Shown here piece after piece: positions 9,130 to 61,318 of a stretch of 64,000 nt of DNA. The notes under the pieces were generated by a model, which made no database searches, was not told the DNA's origin, and saw nothing but the letters and a program-made list of their open reading frames with translations. Source of the DNA: Octopus vulgaris (Eukaryota); assembly GCA_951406725.2 (NCBI GenBank), contig OX597836.1:18724001-18788000 (forward strand), given 5' to 3'. The number at the start of each line of letters is the position of its first letter. Within the stretch, counting starts at the first letter, position 1. The position numbers and the translations under genes were made by a program.

Positions 9130-9207
<78 letters not shown>

Positions 9208-9436
9208 TTTCTTTACTACCCACAAGGGGCTAAACATATAGGGGACAAACAAGGACAGACAAAGAAATTAAGTCGATTACATCGACCCCAGTGCGAAACT
9301 AGTACTTTATTTATCGACTCCGAAAGGATGAAAGGCAAAGTCGACCTCGGCGGAATTTGAACTCAGAACGTACCGACAGACGAAATACCGCTAAGCATTT
9401 CGCCCGGCGCGCTAACGTGTCTGCCAGCTCGCCGCC
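9208..9436 (-). mobile_element. Full-length SINE family 1, tail type B (Tx1-like), inside (GATA)n
   Basis: Complete head-core-tail; (GATA)n on both flanks. Confidence 0.92.
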
Positions 9437-13091: not shown

Positions 13092-13272
13092 AAGGCGGCG
13101 AGCTGGCAGAATCGTTAGCACGTCGGGTGAAATGCTTTGCAGTATTTCGTCTGTCGCTACGTTCTGAGTTCAAATTCCCCTCGGCGGAATTTGAACTCAG
13201 AATGTAGCGGCAGACGAAATACGGCTACGCATTTCGCCCGGCGTGCTAACGGTTCTGCCAGCTTGCCGCCTT
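13092..13272. mobile_element. Two SINE family 1 heads fused in inverted orientation (fold-back)
   Basis: Arm 13092-13178 and inverted arm 13186-13272, with a 7-nt spacer. Confidence 0.92.
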
Positions 13273-21839: not shown

Positions 21840-22712
21840 CCCGAGGTCGACTTTACCTTTCATCTTTTCGAGGTTGATAAATTAAGTACCAGTTACCCAC
21901 TGGGGTCGATATAATCGACTTAATCCTTTTGTCTGTCCTTGTTTGTCCTCTCTGTGTTTAGCCCCTTGTGGGTAGTAAAGAAATAGGTATCTCATCTACC
22001 GCTACGTTCTGAGTTCAAATTCCGCCGAGGTCGACTTTGCCTTTCACCCTTTCGGGGTCGATGAAATAAGTACCAGTTACGCACTGGGGTCGATATAACC
22101 GACTTAATCCGTTTGTCTGTCCGGTTTTGTCCTCTCTGTGTTTAGCCCCTTGTGGGTAGTAAAGAAATAGGTATCTCATCTACCGTTACGTTCTGAGTTC
22201 AAATTTCGCCGAGGTCAACTTTGCTTTTTACCCTTTCGAGGTCGATTAGATAAGTACCAGTTATGCACTGGGGTCGATGTAATCGACTTAATCCGTTTGT
22301 CTGTCCTTGTTTGTCCTCTCTGTGTTTAGCCCCTTGTTGGTAGCAAATAAATAGGTATTTCGTCTACCGCTCAGTTCTGAGTTCAAATTCCGCGAGGTCG
22401 ACTTTGCTTTTCACCCTTTCGGGGTCGATGAAATAAGTACCAGTTACGCACTGGGGTCGATATAATCGACTTAATCCGTTTGTCTGTCCTTGTTTGTCCT
22501 CTCTGTGTTTAGCCCCTTGTTGGTAGCAAAGAAATAGGTATTTCGTCTACCGCTACGTTCTGAGTTCAAATTTCGCCGAGGTCGACTTTGCCTTTCACCC
22601 TTTCGGCGTCGATGAAATAAGAACCAGATATGCACCGGGGTCGATATAATCGACTTACCCACTTCCACAAACTTTGCAGGCCTTGTACCTTCACTAGAAA
22701 GGATTATTATTA
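21840..22712 (+). mobile_element. SINE family 1 concatemer: 4 tail-B units (first 5'-truncated) plus a terminal tail-A-like unit
   Basis: Junctions AAATA|GGTAT at 21986, 22170, 22354 and 22537 (period 183-184). Confidence 0.92.
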
Positions 22713-23935: not shown

Positions 23936-24006
<71 letters not shown>

Positions 24007-25218
24007 TGTTTCTTTATTAGCCACACAGGGCTGCACACAGATAGAACAAATTACAAGGTAGAGCTTTTCTTTTGAAGGTTTAAAAAAAAAAAAAAAAAAA
24101 AAAAAAGGAAGGGGGAGTTTCGATCAAAAGGGATCGTAAAAGGAGAGAAAGAGGACAAAAAAAGGGGGGTTAAAAAAAAGGGGGAGAGGAAAAAAAAAAA
24201 AAAAATTGATCAATAGGGATCGTTATCACAGAAATGTCAATATGAAGTGTAAAGGGGAGGACAGGTGAGGTTTACCCGTGGAAAGAAAAGCCTACGGAAA
24301 AGACCACGGTAACCTCGGTCAATGAAGTCACATTTTATATTTCTTTTTTTTTTTTTTTTTGCAAATAAGCAACTCTCTGTTTTCGATTTCTGGGTTCATA
24401 GGACTATGCTCAAGGTGGCTTCGTCATTCATACGTGCCATTCTTGCTACATTCACCCATCTTTTTTAAAACATTCGCTAGACAAAACTTGCCTCTCTACT
24501 CTCACTTTCCTTTTCAAGTGGTACTTGAAGAAGTTGATGAGAGATTGACCAGAGAGGAAAGTGTTTGTCTCCAATCCTTTCAGACGCGTCCACCAGATAC
24601 ATTCCTTCGCCATAGCCACAAGGATGATGAAAATAGCTCTTCCTTCCCGTTTGAAGGAAGGAGGCGTGACAATATTGACGATAGACTCAGCTGATAAACC
24701 GACTCGTCCCACACGTGACAGCAGTTGTTCGACATAAGCCCACAGGTCGGAAATTGTTGGACACTGAACGAGTGCGTGCAGAACGGTTTCGTCGCTCTGA
24801 CCGCATCTCGGGCAGGTCGGCCCCGTGTTTCTCGAGCCGTGTCTGTAGAGCTTATCCCGAACGGGTAGCGCTTCTCGGTAGCACTGCCAGGCCAGGGATC
24901 TCTGGAAGTTGTCCATGGGCCCTGGCCCGAAAGTCGTCCTGAACAGGCGGGTCAGGTACTCCTCGTCGACGTCCAGGTTCGCCCCGAGCTCGTCGTCGTA
25001 CCTCCCTCCACTAAACCCCTATAGAATGCTTTGGTTGTGTTGAAGTCACTTAAGGTCGACCCAGGACGGCAGAGTTGCTTGAGAGCAACGCGACACTCGC
25101 GGTGCCATTCGCCCTTCCTCGGCCTCTTTTGATCCACGACTGCAGTTCGGTCATGGAGACGAGCTGCGGGAAAGCGTGCCTCACAAACGGCGACCACACC
25201 TGTTCACCGTCGTCTAGA
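24007..25218 (-). mobile_element. L1/Tx1-clade LINE, 5'-truncated (ORF2 C-terminal CCHC zinc finger plus 3'UTR), within (GATA)n
   Basis: AWQCYREALPVRDKL...CPRCGQSDETVLHALVQC...LW...IWWTR (zf-RVT type). The 3' end AATAAAGAAACA is joined directly to (TATC)n. Confidence 0.9.
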
Positions 25219-26842: not shown

Positions 26843-27650
26843 ACAGGGTACGTATGGTATTTGAGGACATACTTTTATGGGGTCATTTTTGCTTATACTG
26901 TATGGTCTTCGTTTCAGAAAATAATAATGGCAGACACTCAGCTTACTCAAGAAATGAAGAGGCATGTTGTTATTGTGGTCATAAAGGCTGAGCATAGCGA
27001 TTTAGAAATATCTCGATTTTGAAAAGTTGCCAGATCTTTCGTCTACAAAGTTTGTAAGAAGCTAGAGACTGAAGATGGAAGCGTGTCACCAGAATCTGTA
27101 TCTTCATTACCCACAAGGGGCTAAACATAGAGAGGACAAACAAGGACAGACAAACGGATTAAGTCGATTACATCGACCTCCGTGCGAAGCAGGTACTTTA
27201 TTTATCGACCCTGAAAGGATGAAAGACAAAGTCGACCTCGACGGAATTTGAACTCACAACGTAACGGCAGACGAAATACCTATTTCTTTACTACCCGCAA
27301 GAGGCTAAACACAGAAGGGACAAACAAGGACAGAGAAACGGATTAAGTCGATTACATCGACCCCAGTGCGTAACTGGTACTTAATTTATCGACCCCGAAA
27401 GGATGAAAGGCAAAGTGGACCTCGGCGGAATTTGAACTCAGAACGTAACGGCAGACGAAATACGGCTACGCATTTCGCCCTGCGTGCTAACGGTTCTGTC
27501 AGCGTGTCACCAGAATCAAAGCATAAAAAGTATTCTAAAGGCTCTGAAATCACCCGAACACTTGAATTTATCTAGTAAGTTCAACTGAACCATTGAATAC
27601 AAACCGAGGAAGTCCATAAGGTCAGTTGCCAAGATCTCCATCTGTCAGAG
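26843..27650 (+). mobile_element. Tc1/mariner-superfamily transposon 5' relic (transposase HTH region) interrupted by a SINE
   Basis: TA-CAGGGT terminus-like start; MADTQLTQEMKRHVV...DLEISRF*KVARSFVYKV...; after the SINE, RTLEFI...PRKSIRSVAK-DLHLSE. Confidence 0.65.
27097..27503 (-). mobile_element. SINE family 1 dimer (head + 2 tail-B units) with 17-bp TSD
   Basis: AGCGTGTCACCAGAATC at 27080-27096 and 27501-27517; internal junction GACGAAATACC|TATTTCTTT at ~27280. Confidence 0.92.
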
Positions 27651-29079: not shown

Positions 29080-30470
29080 AAATGCATAGCGGTATTTTGT
29101 CCACCTACTTATGTTCTGAGTTCAAATTTCACCGAGGTCACTTTGCTTTTCATTCTTTTGGGGGTCGATAAAATAAATACAAGCCAAGTACTGTGGTCGA
29201 TGGAGTAAGCTAGATGACCCTCACCCACAATATCAGATCTTGTGTCGAGAATCGTTAGCATACTGGGAAAAATGCATTTCGTTTGTCTATGTTCTGAGTT
29301 CAAATTGCACCGAGGTCACTTTGCCTTTCATTCTTTTGGGGGTCGATAAAATAAATACAAGCCAAGTACTGTGGTCGATGGAGTAAGCTAGATGACCCTC
29401 ACCCACAATATCAGATCTTGTGTCGAGAATCGTTAGCATACTGGGAAAAATGCATTTCGTTTGTCTATGTTCTGAGTTCAAATTTCACCGAGGTCACTTT
29501 GCTTTTCATTCTTTTGGGGGTCGATAAAATAAATACAAGCCAAGTACTGTGGTCGATGGAGTAAGCTAGATGACCCTCACCCACAATATCAGATCTTGTG
29601 TCGAGAATCGTTAGCATACTGGGAAAAATGCATTTCGTTTGTCTATGTTCTGAGTTCAAATTTCACCGAGGTCACTTTGCTTTTCATTCTTTTGGGGGTC
29701 GATAAAATAAATACAAGCCAAGTACTGTGGTCGATGGAGTAAGCTAGATGACCCTCACCCACAATATCAGATCTTGTGTCGAGAATCGTTAGCATACTGG
29801 GAAAAATGCATTTCGTTTGTCTATGTTCTGAGTTCAAATTGCACCGAGGTCACTTTGCCTTTCATTCTTTTGGGGGTCGATAAAATAAATACAAGCCAAG
29901 TACTGTGGTCGATGGAGTAAGCTAGATGACCCTCACCCACAATATCAGATCTTGTGTCGAGAATCGTTAGCATACTGGGAAAAATGCATTTCGTTTGTCT
30001 ATGTTCTGAGTTCAAATTGCACCGAGGTCACTTTGCCTTTCATTCTTTTGGGGGTCGATAAAATAAATACAAGCCAAGTACTGTGGTCGATGGAGTAAGC
30101 TAGATGACCCTCACCCACAATATCAGATTTTGTGCCAAGAATCGTTAGCATACTGGGAAAAATGCATTTCGTTTGTCTATGTTCTGAGTTCAAATTGCAC
30201 CGAGGTCACTTTGCTTTTCATTCTTTTGGGGGTCGATAAAATAAATACAAGCCAAGTACTGAGGTCGATGGAGTCAGCTAGACGACCCTCACCCAGAATA
30301 TATCAGATCTTGTGCCAAGAATTGTTAGCATACTGGGAAAAATGCATTTCGTTTGTCTTTACGTTCTAGATACAAATCCTGCCGAGGTCGAGTTGGACAC
30401 TGGGGTTTATGCAATTGACTTACCTGCCACCAAACCTGCTGGCCTTGTGCCAAAATTTGAAACCATTACT
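29080..30470 (+). repeat. SINE-derived 178-bp tandem repeat: ~7 near-identical units plus a terminal diverged SINE end
   Basis: Exact 178-bp period (repeated ORFs at 29109, 29287, 29465, 29643, 29821 and 29999). The unit is a diverged family 1 core and A-tail fused to the next head. Confidence 0.95.
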
Positions 30471-31284: not shown

Positions 31285-31370
<86 letters not shown>

Positions 31371-31374
31371 GATA

Positions 31375-31889
31375 TGTTTCTTTATTAGCCACACAGGGCT
31401 GCACACAGACAGGACAAAATTACAAGGTAGAGCTTTTCTTTTGGGGGTAAAAGAAGGGGGTTTGGTTTTCGATCAAAAGGGATCGTAAAAAGAAAGAAAG
31501 AGGACAAAAAAAGGGGGTAATGAAATTTTTAAAAAAAAGGGGGGAAGGGAAAGGAAGGAAAAAAATTGATCAATAGGGATCGTTATCACAGAAATGTCAA
31601 TATGAAGTGTAAAGGGGAGGACAGGTGAGGTTTACCCGTGGAAAGAAAAGCCTACGGAAAAGACCACGGTAACCTCGGTCAATGAAGTCACATGTTATAT
31701 TTCTTTTTTTTTTTCAAATAAGCAACCCTCTGTATTAATTTTTACGGTTCATAGAATCATAGTCAAGGTGGCTTCGTCATTCATACGTGCCATCCTTGCT
31801 ACATTCACCCATCTTTTTTTAAAACATTCACTAGACAAAACTTGCCTCTCTACTCTCACTTTCCTCTTCAAGTCATACTTGAAGAAGTT

Positions 31890-31892
<3 letters not shown>
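31375..31892 (-). mobile_element. Second copy of the Tx1 LINE 3' end, within (GATA)n
   Basis: Colinear with 24007-24537; same 3' junction, different 5' truncation, (GATA)n on both sides. Confidence 0.92.
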
Positions 31893-31947
<55 letters not shown>

Positions 31948-32330
31948 AAGATATTGTGCGTGTGTGAATGAATGTGTGTCGGATGTGTAAAGTCACAACA
32001 ACAACAACAATGATGAACAGGATTATAAGGGAAAGAAAAGAAACGTCAAAAATAGAAAATCATGAAAGAGAATAAAAGAAAATGTTTGAAATAAGATGAA
32101 TGAAAAGGAGTCAAAGAGAAATACGACGGAGAAGATTTTGTTGGTGACGGATGTGGTACTGATAATAGGGGGAGATGTGGTAGGGAATGGGATAGTGGTG
32201 GTGGGGGGATGGAATGATTGAGTTTGGAGGTGTGGGTGGAACAATGTTGTGGTATTTATTATTAAATGTGGTGGGGGAGATACTAATGTTGATGTTGGTG
32301 TTGGTGGCGATGGTATTGCAGGGAGTAATA

Positions 32331-33115
32331 GGCGGAGAGCTGGCAGAAACGTTAGCACGCCGGACGAAGTGCTTAGCGGTATTTCGTCCGCCGCTGCGTT
32401 CTGAGTTCAAATTCCGCCGAGGTCGACTTTGCCTTTCATCCTTTCAGAGTCGATAAATTAAGTACCAGTTACGCACTGGGGTCGATGTAATCGACTTAAT
32501 CCGTTTGCCTGTCCTTGATTGTCCCCTCCTGTGTTTAGCCCCTTATGGGTAGTAAAGAAATAGGTATTTCGTCTGTCGTTACGTTCTGAGTTCAAATTCC
32601 GCCGAGGTCGACTTTACCTTTCATCCTTTCGGGGGTCGATAAATTAAGTACCAGTTACGCACTGGGGTCGATGTAATCGACTTAATCCGTGTGTCTGTCC
32701 TTGTTTGTTTCCTCTGTGTTTAGCCCCTTGTGGATAGTAAAGAAATAGGTATTTCGGCTGCCGTTACGTCCTGAGTTCAAATTCCGCCGAGGTCGACTTT
32801 GCCTTTCATCCTTTCGGAGTCGATAAATTAAGTACCAGTTGCGCACTGGGGTCGATGTAATCGACTTAATACCTTTGTCTGTCCTTGTTTGTCCTCTCTG
32901 TGTTTAGCCCCTTGTGGGTAATAAAGATATAGGTATTTCGTCGGCCGCTATGTTCTGAGTTCAAATTCCGCTGAGGTCGACTTTGCCTGTCATCCTTTCG
33001 GGGTCGATAAATTAAGTACCAGTTACGCACTGGAGTCGATGTAATCGACTTAATCCGTTTGCCTGTCCTTGTTTGTCCTCTCTACGTTTAGCCCCTTGTG
33101 GGTAGTAAAGAAATA
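32331..33115 (+). mobile_element. SINE family 1 concatemer: head + 4 tail-B units
   Basis: GGTATTT at 32378, 32563, 32748, 32932 and 33116 (period 184-185). Confidence 0.95.
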
Positions 33116-33711
33116 GGTATTTATTATTAAATGTGGTGGAGGAGATACTGATGGTAGGTCGATGTTGGTGACGATGGTATTGCAGGGTGTAGGAGTGGTA
33201 ATGATGGTGATGATACTGATGGGATGGCGATGGTAGAGATAATGGTAGTGGTGGTGGTGGTGGTAGTTGTGGAGGGGTAATGCTGATGTTTGTGATGGTG
33301 GCAGTGTTGGTGATGGTGAGGATGGTAGTAGTGGTTCTGCTGCTGATAGAATGATTTTAGTAGTGCTGAATCTGTGTTGAAGCAGGTGATGTGGTGGGGG
33401 GTGGTGATTGTAGTGGTAGTGGTACTAGTGGTGGTCCTGGTGGTGGTAGTAGTGCTAGCGGAAAGGTTAATTCTGGTGATGGAAATGGTGGTGGTGGTGG
33501 TGGTGGTGGTGGTGGTGGTGGTAGTGGTGGTAGTCGTCGTTCTAGTTCATAATGACAACAACGTCTTGGGTTTTTAGTGGAAGATGTTAAGATGTGGTGA
33601 AAAGACCAAAAATTTGTGGTGGTTGTGGTGGTGATGGTGGTGGTGGTGGTGGTGGTGGTGGTGGTGGCGGCGGCGGCGGCGGTAGCGGGAGTGTGATAGT
33701 GTTGATGTTCT

Positions 33712-36028: not shown

Positions 36029-37269
36029 GAAGAGGGAGGCCGTGGTCTTTTGCAACTGGCAATAACAATGAAGATTGCTACAATTGGCCTAGACACCTAC
36101 CTGAAAAACTCTGGATGTTAAAACTTGTCTCAAAACATGAAAACAAGAAAGCATCATACTCAGTCACAAAACAGGCAAAGGAATATCTAAGTGAATTGCG
36201 AATACAACCAATTTCGGAATTAGAGATAGATATACAAGAAACAAGCACAGAAAAAGCTAGGCGCATGAAAACCCGTGCCAAAACTGCGGCCTTAGATATT
36301 CTGAATAATAAATGGCAAGAAAAACCTCTCTATGGCAAATACCCAAAGAGAGCGAATAATGCAGATATCGACAAAGCCCTGACCCATCAATGGCTAATGG
36401 CCTCTGGCTTAAAATCTGAAACAGAGGGGTTTATCATAGCAGCTCAAGATCAATGCCTACCAACAAGAAACTACCAGGCCAACATATTAAAGAACAGCAG
36501 TAGCCCAACATGTCGTGTATGCCGACAACAAAATGAAACCATTGACCATGTTGTCTCCAAATGCAGTCTTCTAGCGCCTACAGAGTACCTCAGTAGGCAT
36601 GATAGAGCTGCACAATATATTCACTGGGTAATTTGCAAAAACCTGGATTTGCCCCATGAAAAAAACTGGTGGGAACACAATCCACCTCCTGTGCTAGAAA
36701 ATTACCACATCTCACTCCTCTGGAACTTCACCATTCAAACTGACAGGAAGATAGATGCAAATAGGCCAGACATTATATTGAAAGACTTCAGACAAAGAAC
36801 ATGTCTCCTCATTGATATGACTGTCCCAATCGATATAAACGTATCTGTCAAGACCTACCAAAAACTGAGCAAATATAAAGATCTTGAAATAGAAATCAGC
36901 AAAATGTGGAAGCTGAAGACTAAAACAATACCTGTTGTCATAGGTGCCCTGGGAATGATAGCGAAAGGGACTGATTGCTACCTAACTCAGATACCAGGAA
37001 ACCCCAAAATGGCAGAAATTCAAAAGATAGTGCTCATGGGAACTGCTCATATCCTACGCAAAATACTCTCTATGTAATCCCAAGGTTTAAAACAAACTTT
37101 TTTTTTTTAATTAATTTATTTATTTATTTTTTTATGTATTAGACATTCACTAGTACAACACCATAAAAAAAAAAAATATATGGCACAGAACTTCTAACCT
37201 GTTGTCTTTTGAGGTCTCTGGGTGAGACTTGGAGCCAACTTGTACAGACATAAAGCAAAGTCAAACATA

Positions 37270-54848: not shown

Positions 54849-55155
54849 GTGCAACTGTGTGTGAAATATATGAAATGAAGACAGCGAAAGGTTGCGCAGT
54901 CATGTGACAGAGAGTCGTAAAGACAAACACTGCGCATGCGTTAGTGTCTTTCATTTCATCTTCTGAAACCGTTCTAGATTAATCGACAGAGAGTTTAGCA
55001 TAAAAAGAAAGAGTTAATTACAAACTGGATGAATTAGTCGTAATTTGCATAATTAAAAAATATATAATGAAATAAGGGGAAGTAACTGAAGTGGACCAAT
55101 GCTATGAATTTAAATAAATAAATAAATAAGACATAGACATAGGTGTGGTTGTGTG

Positions 55156-55355
55156 GCGGCGAGCTGGCAGAATCGTTAGCACGCCGGGCTAAATGCTTTG
55201 TGGTATTTCGTCCGCCGCTGCGTTCTGAGTTCAAATTCCGGGGTCGATAAATTAAGTACCAGTGATGCACTGGGGTCGATGCAATCGATTTAATACCTAT
55301 GTCTGTCCTTGTTTGTCCCCTCTATGTTTAGCCCCTTGTGGGTAGTAAAGAAATA
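55156..55355 (+). mobile_element. SINE family 1 tail B monomer with an internal deletion in the core
   Basis: AAATTCCG|GGTCGATAAA skips the GAGGTCGACTTTGCC segment. Confidence 0.88.
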
Positions 55356-56675: not shown

Positions 56676-58345
56676 TGGCGGCAACCCGGCAGAATTGTTG
56701 GCACGCCGGGCAAAAATGCTTAGGAGCATTTTGTCTGCCTTTACTTCTGAGTTCGAATGCAGACGAGATCAACTTTACCTTTTAACTATTCGAGGTCGAT
56801 ATAATAAGTAACAATTGAACACTGAAGTCGATCACATTGAATTAAACTCAAATGTCTAGCGGCGTTTCGTCTGTCGCTACGTTCAACTTTGCCTTTCATC
56901 CTTTCGGGGTCGATTAAATAAGTACCAGTTACGCACTGGGGTCGATATAATCGACTTAATCCGTTTGTCTGTCCTTGCTTGTCCTCTCTGTGTTTAGTCC
57001 CTTGTTAGTAATAAAAAAAATAGGTATTTCGTCTGTCGCTACGTTCTGACTTATTGAAGAATCAAAAGCATTTAATCGCGATCTTGCAATGGTATTTGTA
57101 GACTTTTCTAAAGCGTTCGATTCTGTAGATAGGTGACAAGATGTTTGAAATCCTTAAGCTCTATGGGATACCAGACAAAATCATTTCTGCCATCAAGGTC
57201 CTCTACACAGATACGTCTTCAACCATCTTAACCCCTGACGGAGAAACATCATCTTTCTCAATCAAAGCCGGAATACTGCAGGGAGACACACTCGCCCCAT
57301 TTCTTTTCATCATTGTTGTTGATTATGTGCTGCGTATGTCAGTTTATACCATCTCTGGCAAGGGCTTTGAAATAAAACCAAGAAGAAGTTCCAGACACTC
57401 AGCTGAGTACTTGACAGACACTGACTTTGCTGACGACATCGCTCTTATCAGTGATTCTCTCTCCAATGCACAGTCTCTTTTACAATCTCTTGAACAAGCC
57501 TCAAATTGTGTAGGTCTTTACCTCAATGAGGCCAAAACTGAATACATAAATAAGTGCCTGTCCAACAGTGATTGCATCATCCATACTCTCAACAATGCGC
57601 CCTTAAATATGGTTTCTGATTATAAATATCTTGGGTCATACATATCATCATCTGGAAAAGACTTTCTAACTAGAAAGGGTATGGCCTGGTCAGCCTGTAA
57701 TGACATGCATAAGATCTGGTCATCAAATCTAAGTAGAGACTTCAAACTTGAAATCTTCAAAGCCACAGTCGAACCAATTCTACTATATGGCTCAGAAACC
57801 TGGACGTTATCAAAGAAGCTTGAGAGGCGGTTGGATGGAACCTACACTCGCCTCCTTATGGGAGCTCAAAATCTCTCGTGGAAGCGCCATCCAACCAAAA
57901 TGCAAATATATGGGAAACTATCACCTGTGTCATCTCTTGTGAAAGGTAGGAGAGTCCAGTTTGCTGGACATTGTTGTAGAGCTGAAAAAGAAGTAATTTC
58001 TACTCTTCTCCTCTGGAAGCCATCTACTCGCAATAGCAGAGGGCGCACACTCTCCTACCCTGATGTAATCTCCAGGGATACAGGCATCCAGCAACAGGAC
58101 CTCCGTAATGCCATGATGGACCGTGAAGTCTGGCGTAGCATGGTAAATTCCATTGTCTCGACCACGGTCGAACAATGATGAATGATGATGACGTTCTGAG
58201 TTCAAATTCCGCCGAGGTCGACTTTACCTTTCATTGTTTCGGGGTCGATAAGTCGATAAGTACCAGTTGGACTCTGAGGTCGATGTAATTGACTATACCC
58301 CCTCCTACCAACTTTCTGGCCTTCTGCCAAAATTTGAAATCAATA
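56676..58345 (+). mobile_element. SINE family 1 multimer split by an RTE insertion
   Basis: Diverged head at 56676, tail-B unit ending ~57021, GGTATTTC junction; resumes at 58191 and ends in tail A. Confidence 0.8.
57050..58190 (+). mobile_element. RTE-clade LINE, 5'-truncated RT and C-terminus, (ATG)n tail, 9-bp TSD
   Basis: FVDFSKAFDSV, GILQGDTLAPFLF, DFADDIAL, YKYLGS, LLYGSETW, FAGHC. TSD ACGTTCTGA at 57041-57049 and 58191-58199. Confidence 0.96.
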
Positions 58346-60821: not shown

Positions 60822-61318
60822 GTTTCAAATTTTGGCTCAACGGCAGCAATTTCGGGGAGGGGATAAGTCGATTACGTCGACCCTTGTTCTCAACTGGTAC
60901 TTTATTGACCCCCGAAAGAATGAAAAGTAGAGTCACCTAGGCGGAATTTGAACTCAGAACGTAAAGACAGACAAAATGCTACAACTAAGTAACTTGTCTG
61001 CGTAACTGGTACTTATTTCATCGACCCCGAAAGTCGACCTCGGCGGAATTTGAACTCAGAACGTAACAGCAGACGAAATACCTATTTCTTTACTACCCAC
61101 AAGGGGCTAAACACGGAGAGGACAAACAAGGACAGACAAACGGATTAAGTCGATTATATCGACCCCTGTGCGTAACTGGTACTTATTTAATCCGCCCCCG
61201 AAGGGATGAAAGGCAAAGTCGACCTCGGGGGAATTTGAACTCAGAACGTAGCGGCAGACGAAATACTGTGAAGCATTTCGCCCGGTGTTCTAACGTTTCT
61301 GCCAGCTCGCCGCCTTAC
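60820..61318 (-). mobile_element. SINE family 1 multimer (head, tail-B unit, partial unit, tail-A unit)
   Basis: Head at ~61315, junction GACGAAATACC|TATTTCTTT at ~61082, tail A CCAAAATTTGAAACC at ~60821 followed by (ATT)n. Confidence 0.88.

Follow-up and report, generated by a model that had tools for sequence, protein, structure and literature searches.

Tandem arrays built from SINEs are a known architecture in the blood clam and among the SINE satellites of reptiles, and targeted pairs of a Tx1 element and a SINE are known in crocodilians, as described in the accessible portions of the respective reports. In the blood clam, the accessible text sets out TSD1-(SINE)n-TSD1 structures with one complete head, repeated head-truncated units, a single flanking duplication and, within some tandem structures, other families (PMC11481361), all of which recur in the octopus arrays analysed here. 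The clam's internal units are also tail-truncated, its arrays of 64 elements hold 4-15 units each, and their proposed origin is unequal recombination; the octopus tails are complete, there are no fewer than 39,269 junctions, and the scars of insertion indicate retrotransposition. The SINE-derived satellites of squamates (sSat; available sections of PMC10702118) likewise repeat part of a SINE in tandem and have first and last monomers of distinct kinds, but they reach up to hundreds of units and are ascribed mainly to unequal recombination, while the octopus arrays mostly hold 2-3 units, are dispersed and mix families. Targeted insertion is treated in the available part of PMC4494074, which covers crocodilian SINEU-3 with its Tx1-Mar LINEs and Xenopus Tx1L inside Tx1D. 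As with SINEU-3, the octopus SINE appears to be carried by a LINE, here of L1/Tx1 type, has a preferred site in a repeat and forms tandems by sequential insertion; the crocodilian target, however, is a DNA transposon and the tandem copies there sandwich a duplication, whereas the octopus target is the SINE's own head, the joins are mostly seamless and the host head is apparently replaced. R1 of the Drosophila melanogaster group, R1Bm and SART1Bm offer a precedent for a target-bearing RNA that anneals to its target (accessible portions of PMC2718515 and PMC7265360), and Drosophila R1 one for precise, deletion-bearing 5' joins beside a minority with duplications (PMC2718515, same portions). Unlike the octopus SINE, which targets itself and would have a 47-bp promoter-bearing head replaced, R1 and SART1Bm are autonomous, use rDNA or telomere-repeat targets and show a 9-bp deletion (same portions of PMC2718515 and PMC7265360).

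What is new here is evidence for a host-first history, for head replacement, for graded target matching and for an apparently unused variant with C at base 48. Among Alu elements, a younger copy can replace part of an older one by gene conversion, a rare process for which neither a fixed site nor the gain of a unit is known; the likeness lies in a young copy overwriting part of an old copy at one locus. OK, OR1 and OR2, reportedly described by Ohshima and Okada in 1994, are said to be abundant tRNA-derived SINEs of octopus. We presume that the array SINE may be one of these three or a relative of them, and to our knowledge neither arrays nor self-targeting has been described for them. The available part of PMC4758252 cites the OR2 SINE, and the accessible portions of PMC13282606, PMC4758252 and PMC9659126 make no mention of arrays of this kind. 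Our search of the published literature returned no SINE that homes into and replaces its own head; mollusc SINE arrays may be shown in supplements.

Loci and annotation

The window is the whole 64-kb stretch of DNA in which the arrays were described; it lies on contig C23 of the genome (G000). The analysis covered about 1.6-1.9 Mb in total. Besides the window itself it took in 60 ten-kb stretches, some at arbitrary places and others close to listed tails or next to the window, a further 20 arbitrary ten-kb stretches, 40 short stretches around junctions with a sister tail next, and loci from pattern searches; the majority of loci lay in the first 90 Mb of contig C1 and stemmed from lists selected by exact motifs. 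SINE pieces were annotated by BLAST against the majority sequence, de-duplicated, and dropped if they lay less than 100-130 bp from a locus end. Junction-selected sets were excluded from counts of the sequence after the tail, and the nested-head set from the age comparison. Duplications were called by an in-house heuristic, which found them at 39 of 92 OT1-ended arrays (OT1 being a sister family).

A fixed junction in the window and in the genome

The unit of the arrays corresponds to bases 48-231 of a 231-bp SINE that is short, non-coding, dispersed and of high copy number, with target-site duplications of variable length (mean 15-18 bp) and a last ~50 bp that align with the 3' end of an L1/Tx1-type LINE. 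A- and B-box-like motifs, judged against the usual consensus, are the sole basis for a tRNA origin of the head, in which ARAGORN found no tRNA; Rfam gave zero matches at E<=5, and folding of the tail gave weak structures only.

At 32331-33115 a 47-bp head is followed by four units of 185, 185, 184 and 184 bp, which are 91-92% identical to one another and 95-97% identical to the family majority sequence (Table 1). The preliminary description had reported one junction at five named loci of the window on both strands, and this is confirmed, with 10 true junctions at the five loci, 4 of them exact and the others with 1-2 mismatches. Its account of the 32331-33115 array is likewise borne out: the A-box-like motif is restricted to the head, a B-box-like motif recurs in each unit, and there is no T4 terminator, TTTT being absent from 32331-33122 and first occurring at 33355. 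The structure of one head plus n units that it gave for all five loci describes this array well but does not extend to every locus, as the 22-kb array has no head, begins at base 87 and ends in a sister-family tail, and the copies at 57.0 and 61.1 kb are fragmentary. Not part of that account were the 77-bp duplication around the 32331 array and the 17-bp duplication around the 27-kb dimer; the former is likely an unusually long target-site duplication, the alternative being a pre-existing tandem.

Table 1. Positions of SINE arrays, single SINE copies and LINE fragments in the 64-kb window.
Feature	Position	Strand	Remarks
SINE head, bases 1-47	32331..32377	+	A-box-like motif ~32341-32352
Unit 1, SINE bases 48-231	32378..32562	+	B-box-like motif 32403-32415; LINE-like tail is the last ~50 bp
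Unit 2	32563..32747	+	tail-to-base-48 join
Unit 3	32748..32931	+	
Unit 4	32932..33115	+	followed by non-SINE DNA starting GGTATTT
Left copy of 77-bp flanking duplication	32251..32327	+	starts GGTATTT
Right copy of array-flanking duplication	33116..33191	+	~90% identical to left copy
Headless array	21841..22657	+	four units, then a unit running into a sister-family tail
Dimer with C48-type head	27101..27503	-	perfect 17-bp duplication on both sides
Fragmentary unit and junction	56883..57052	+	behind an older sister SINE
Full element, junction and internally deleted unit	60999..61314	-	
231-bp monomer	9206..9436	-	inside (TCTA)n repeat; reference copy
Monomer with internal deletion	55155..55355	+	
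3' fragment of L1/Tx1-type LINE (zf-RVT)	23991..25215	-	last ~50 bp like SINE tail; (ATCT)n at end
3' end of second LINE copy	31360..31903	-	85% identical; same tail type

Across the 2.8-Gb genome the exact junction 20-mer has 39,269 matches and its reversed control none, and exact junctions occur as pairs 184 bp apart 6,412 times, which together exclude a chance origin of the junction. Exact tail 20-mers of the T type number 73,523, exact matches to the CAA tail variant 18,508, and exact matches to the junction followed by a sister tail 3,603. The precision seen in the window holds in the genome sample, where base 48 is the entry point in 81 of 87 junctions after T-type tails and base 47 in 2. 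Elements of one to five pieces number 43, 48, 12, 4 and 2, and with 1-3 pieces in 103 of 109 elements the octopus arrays are not long homogenised satellites; a few long homogeneous arrays do exist. One stretch (G000:C1 10.399-10.400 Mb) holds at least 8 consecutive junctions, with two near-identical unit types alternating.

Separate from the junction-bearing arrays, the window holds at 29110-30358 seven tandem 178-bp units that match at 98% and combine a sister SINE, starting near its base 15, with a different tail; this tandem is young, homogeneous and SINE-derived. At 13094-13270 two SINE heads form an inverted pair joined at about bases 85-92.

Probable older hosts behind young heads

The last unit of 66 arrays was OT1 in 17, CAA in 15, T in 14 and other or truncated in 20. 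The duplications that flank OT1-ended arrays open with bases of the OT1 type and have mismatches at 36 of 389 core positions (9.3%), against 12 of 357 (3.4%) for T-type insertions (p 0.001), and mismatch is higher still around OT1 monomers (24/139; p 0.013 against OT1-ended arrays). The first units of the same arrays are as young as T monomers (3.5% vs 3.1%), and non-CpG divergence of the head is 4.9% in OT1-ended arrays, 5.0% in T monomers and 9.0% in OT1 monomers. In diversity the OT1 pieces at array ends come close to lone OT1 copies; no pair among 5,050 differs by less than 6%, and a Mantel test showed no association between these pieces and the unit before them (r -0.01, n=78). Because the duplications are old, the tails old and unrelated, and the heads young in these sister-ended arrays, we infer that the host came first and that its head was replaced. 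The intermediate age of the duplications would also be expected from a mixture with whole-array copying, and first and last units of one locus are positively correlated in their divergence (rho 0.63, n=13; 0.32, n=39; 0.23, n=78), as co-insertion or a local mutation rate would predict.

None of the 39 duplication-bearing OT1 arrays starts beyond base 23, against 8 of 21 OT1 monomers (5/18 loci); a start beyond base 20 was found in 15 of 92 OT1 arrays, the 22-kb array of the window among them. Of the arrays whose host has TT at bases 61/63, 31 show the T type at these bases in their first unit and 3 the host type. Base 19 is A in 57/85 arrays, 47/64 T monomers and 14/40 OT1 monomers, and no gradient of host sequence along the head was seen in the noisy bins. 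At bases 53-66, 26 of 47 rare variants of middle units (55%) recur in the unit that follows, a proportion that drops to 15-21% at bases 130-231 (shuffled, 2-7%), and first and second units have 6-13% of such variants in common. The new strand thus appears to join by homology, to the upstream host head if one is present and otherwise to downstream host sequence.

At L144 (G000:C1 12.216 Mb), 33 bp of flank starting GGTATTT together with SINE bases 84-231 are repeated ahead of a truncated OT1 host, which shows the same joining principle at a flank site.

Choice of target

Where T-type arrays end in non-SINE DNA, at least four bases of GGTATTT stand at its start in 22 of 55 cases, compared with 0.24% of random positions. 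The match at insertion sites is a prefix of variable length and, since the left copy of the duplication shows it too, predates the insertion. The insertion rate per site rises ~1,400-fold from 1 to 7 matching bases, with 4-8 counts per class, and the SINE site stands a further 25-fold above the 7-base matches, falling, on small counts, where the curve would continue to about 10 bases. The longest match of the GGTATTT type is base 48 of the SINE head, a head common to the sister families. After exact T-type tails, GG or site 48 comes next in 27 of 30 cases and site 15 in none of the 30, whereas CAA tails are followed by TATA in 8/30, by site 48 or GG in 9/30 and by site 15 of the head in 5/30. 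Loci with this second fixed entry point, base 15 of the head and mainly after CAA-type tails, include L241, L242, L261-L263, L092 and L198.

Heads with C at base 48 make up 36 of 197, yet C starts just 1 of 108 junctions, and a search for nested insertions at such heads yielded 3 candidate loci and 0 true insertions there. That C48 heads seem unused as targets is suggestive only, because a G supplied by the RNA could mask C in seamless joins; a test for RNA-templated correction of target mismatches came out almost even, at 7 vs 6 (n=18). We lean slightly towards a target picked by pairing of RNA read-through with nicked DNA, and a sequence-preferring nuclease could quite plausibly have made the choice instead. 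According to Kojima the endonuclease is the main target determinant (PMC4494074, accessible part), and the RNAs of SART1Bm and R1Bm are reported to anneal to their targets (available sections of PMC7265360).

Insertions that kept both heads

A nested arrangement, in which site 48 and a few more host bases are followed by a new full head, has 189 exact matches, ~0.5% of the exact junction count. At the 29 such loci inspected, host-private bases are duplicated in 6 and 7 more are compatible with duplication, while the left piece is unlike the host in 8 and the continuation of site 48 is missing on the right in 8; 16 of the 29 are not simple duplications. The duplication-type loci, 6 plus 7, we read as target-primed insertions of the ordinary kind, placed at base 48. 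The remainder suggest that the enzyme jumped onto RNAs ending 11-25 nt past site 48, or that insertions followed later, and do not prove read-through.

A head fragment ending at bases 61-74, then AA and a full element, occurs at L096, L100, L102, L111, L400-L403, G000:C5 87.875 Mb and C10 17.996 Mb, tandemly repeated at some of these loci; the fragment ends may be marks of short RNA 3' ends. At L336-L340 (G000:C1 15.78 Mb) and L030, short 3' SINE pieces stand in tandem with their duplication between them, in units of 101 bp and ~55 bp. An extra GAAATA between tail and target, found at L014, L025, L091, L109, L115, L133 and L225, is a slippage mark from the start of reverse transcription.

Mechanism and alternatives

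The arrays are chains of the 231-bp SINE joined at base 48 of its head, and we consider it probable that a LINE-driven process built them by inserting one new copy after another at that base of older ones. The incoming copy would overwrite the older head, which would leave neither a second head nor a duplication. An enzyme of the L1/Tx1 group, to which the common ~50-bp tail points, would copy the SINE by target-primed reverse transcription, aimed either by an RNA that continues past the tail into GGTATTTCG... and pairs with nicked DNA or by a nuclease that chooses the site. A few events retain both heads and a duplication; in most, as the ages suggest, the new strand would pair with the homologous host head and take its place, while the duplication around the host and the host's tail, both old, would stay as they were. 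Within arrays the new strand would pair with host sequence just downstream of the junction, so that middle units would start with host-derived bases. Each event would place a young promoter upstream of GGTATTTCG..., creating at once a new source and a new target, and local DNA duplication later adds near-identical units, as seen in a few long arrays. Going beyond this, we entertain, as a tentative possibility that we would not yet favour, a self-homing SINE whose RNA read-through is the guide that chooses base 48 of its relatives, overwriting the old promoter head and turning each event into a new guide-bearing source. If so, older SINEs in the tens of thousands would have had their heads rewritten, and C48, a variant of the head by one base, would be an escaping, resistant form.

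In two alternative readings no head is replaced during insertion. Multi-unit read-through RNAs from many source loci could have been copied whole, most arrays then being single insertions, and the unit's lack of a T4 terminator fits this, as do young heads that need no replacement step, the intermediate age of the duplications, the correlated divergence of first and last units, composite inserts that lie inside one duplication (L092 among them) and 8 nested loci whose non-host left piece looks like the product of a switch to an RNA that ends 15-25 nt beyond site 48. Against whole-RNA copying, the divergence of the duplications is 2.7 times as high around OT1-ended arrays as around T insertions; this reading also sits poorly with 0 of 39 arrays 5'-truncated beyond base 23, with 0 sibling hosts among 5,050 pairs and with a Mantel r of -0.01, and its sources would themselves still require insertion at site 48, so that we regard it as unlikely for most arrays. 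An insertion at base 48 could instead have kept both heads, one being deleted afterwards by recombination between the ~63-bp head repeats. Nested two-head forms do occur, as this scenario needs, but they would have had to disappear almost totally, and random crossover would leave the 5' portion of the head with host alleles (~70% at base 19), with which the base-19 counts and the missing gradient disagree; we rate later head loss very unlikely. The preliminary description had held that the junction pre-exists in the template, which is right in part only. At most junctions a young unit meets a host that is older, independent of it and was present in the DNA beforehand, while short RNA read-through stays plausible as a guide and some copying of multi-unit RNA is possible. 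Of the routes it offered, precise self-targeted insertion gains support from the base-48 precision, the nested scars and the mixed-family hosts.

Two routes of amplification are further alternatives. Tandem duplication or unequal crossover at the DNA level, seeded by the GGTATTT match, might make most junctions: units are somewhat closer within arrays (7.2%) than between them (9.4%), 5 of 82 pairs differ by less than 2%, concordance at base 125 is 62/78 where 50% is expected, long arrays of near-identical units exist, and middle units share variants at a baseline of 15-21%. Against this, first and second units have just 6-13% of rare variants in common, and duplication can neither set a young T-type unit before an OT1 or CAA unit nor create nested duplications. 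DNA duplication as the main route is refuted by the existence of mixed-family dimers, and we judge it quite improbable that it makes most junctions; the near-identical units of 5/82 pairs and of some long arrays show it at work as a secondary process. Rolling-circle reverse transcription of a 184-nt circular RNA, in the manner of a retrozyme, was another route offered earlier, and it would explain the fixed unit length and junction. Such a circle is not supported, because units of one array lie 7.2% apart and often belong to different subfamilies, Rfam gave no match, and the CTGANGA hammerhead core is absent on both strands (a check that covers known ribozymes only). Chain ends of other families, the head present in most arrays and the predominance of elements with 1-2 units also speak against a circle, which we find scarcely credible.

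On the preferred explanation, dispersed SINEs come to stand in tandem by retrotransposition, on a scale of at least 39,000 junctions, and SINE families have a mechanism of module exchange that sets a young head on an old body and tail. If heads are overwritten, SINE ages and family assignments taken from heads would mislead in such genomes. The system is also a simple natural one in which to ask whether RNA pairing can aim an L1/Tx1-type enzyme, and whether such an enzyme can make seamless, homology-joined insertions.

The tail-sharing LINE

A link between the tail of the arrays and Tx1 machinery had been drawn earlier, and the tail is indeed common to a LINE of L1/Tx1 type; that LINE family itself sits in ATCT repeats and not at base 48. 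One copy (L347) carries Exo_endo_phos, RVT_1 and zf-RVT domains, that is, an APE endonuclease, a reverse transcriptase and a C-terminal zinc motif, and among solved structures its best relative is LINE-1 ORF2p (E 3e-53). The family (L347, L348 and the window copy at 23991-25215) has many intact frames of 1,130 residues. Its exact tails number 6,432 and lie for the most part in (ATCT)n, and its copies, ~98% identical, are younger than the SINE. The microsatellite target is no more than suggestive of the Tx1 clade, by analogy with Kibi and Koshi in the accessible part of PMC4494074.

None of 38 tails of this LINE lay at site 48 or 15, nor did any of the 30 inspected among 40 matches. Among 647 site-48 stretches, 42 had neither head nor body upstream, and none of these looked LINE-like by eye, a survey that a rare family could escape; an atlas search returned generic LINE clusters only. 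Two other retrotransposon frames lie in the window at 36031-37077 and 57129-58178, one with a weak zinc-motif match followed by (AAT)n and one with an RT domain. We take the zinc-motif frame to resemble R4/Dong and the RT-domain frame to be RTE-like.
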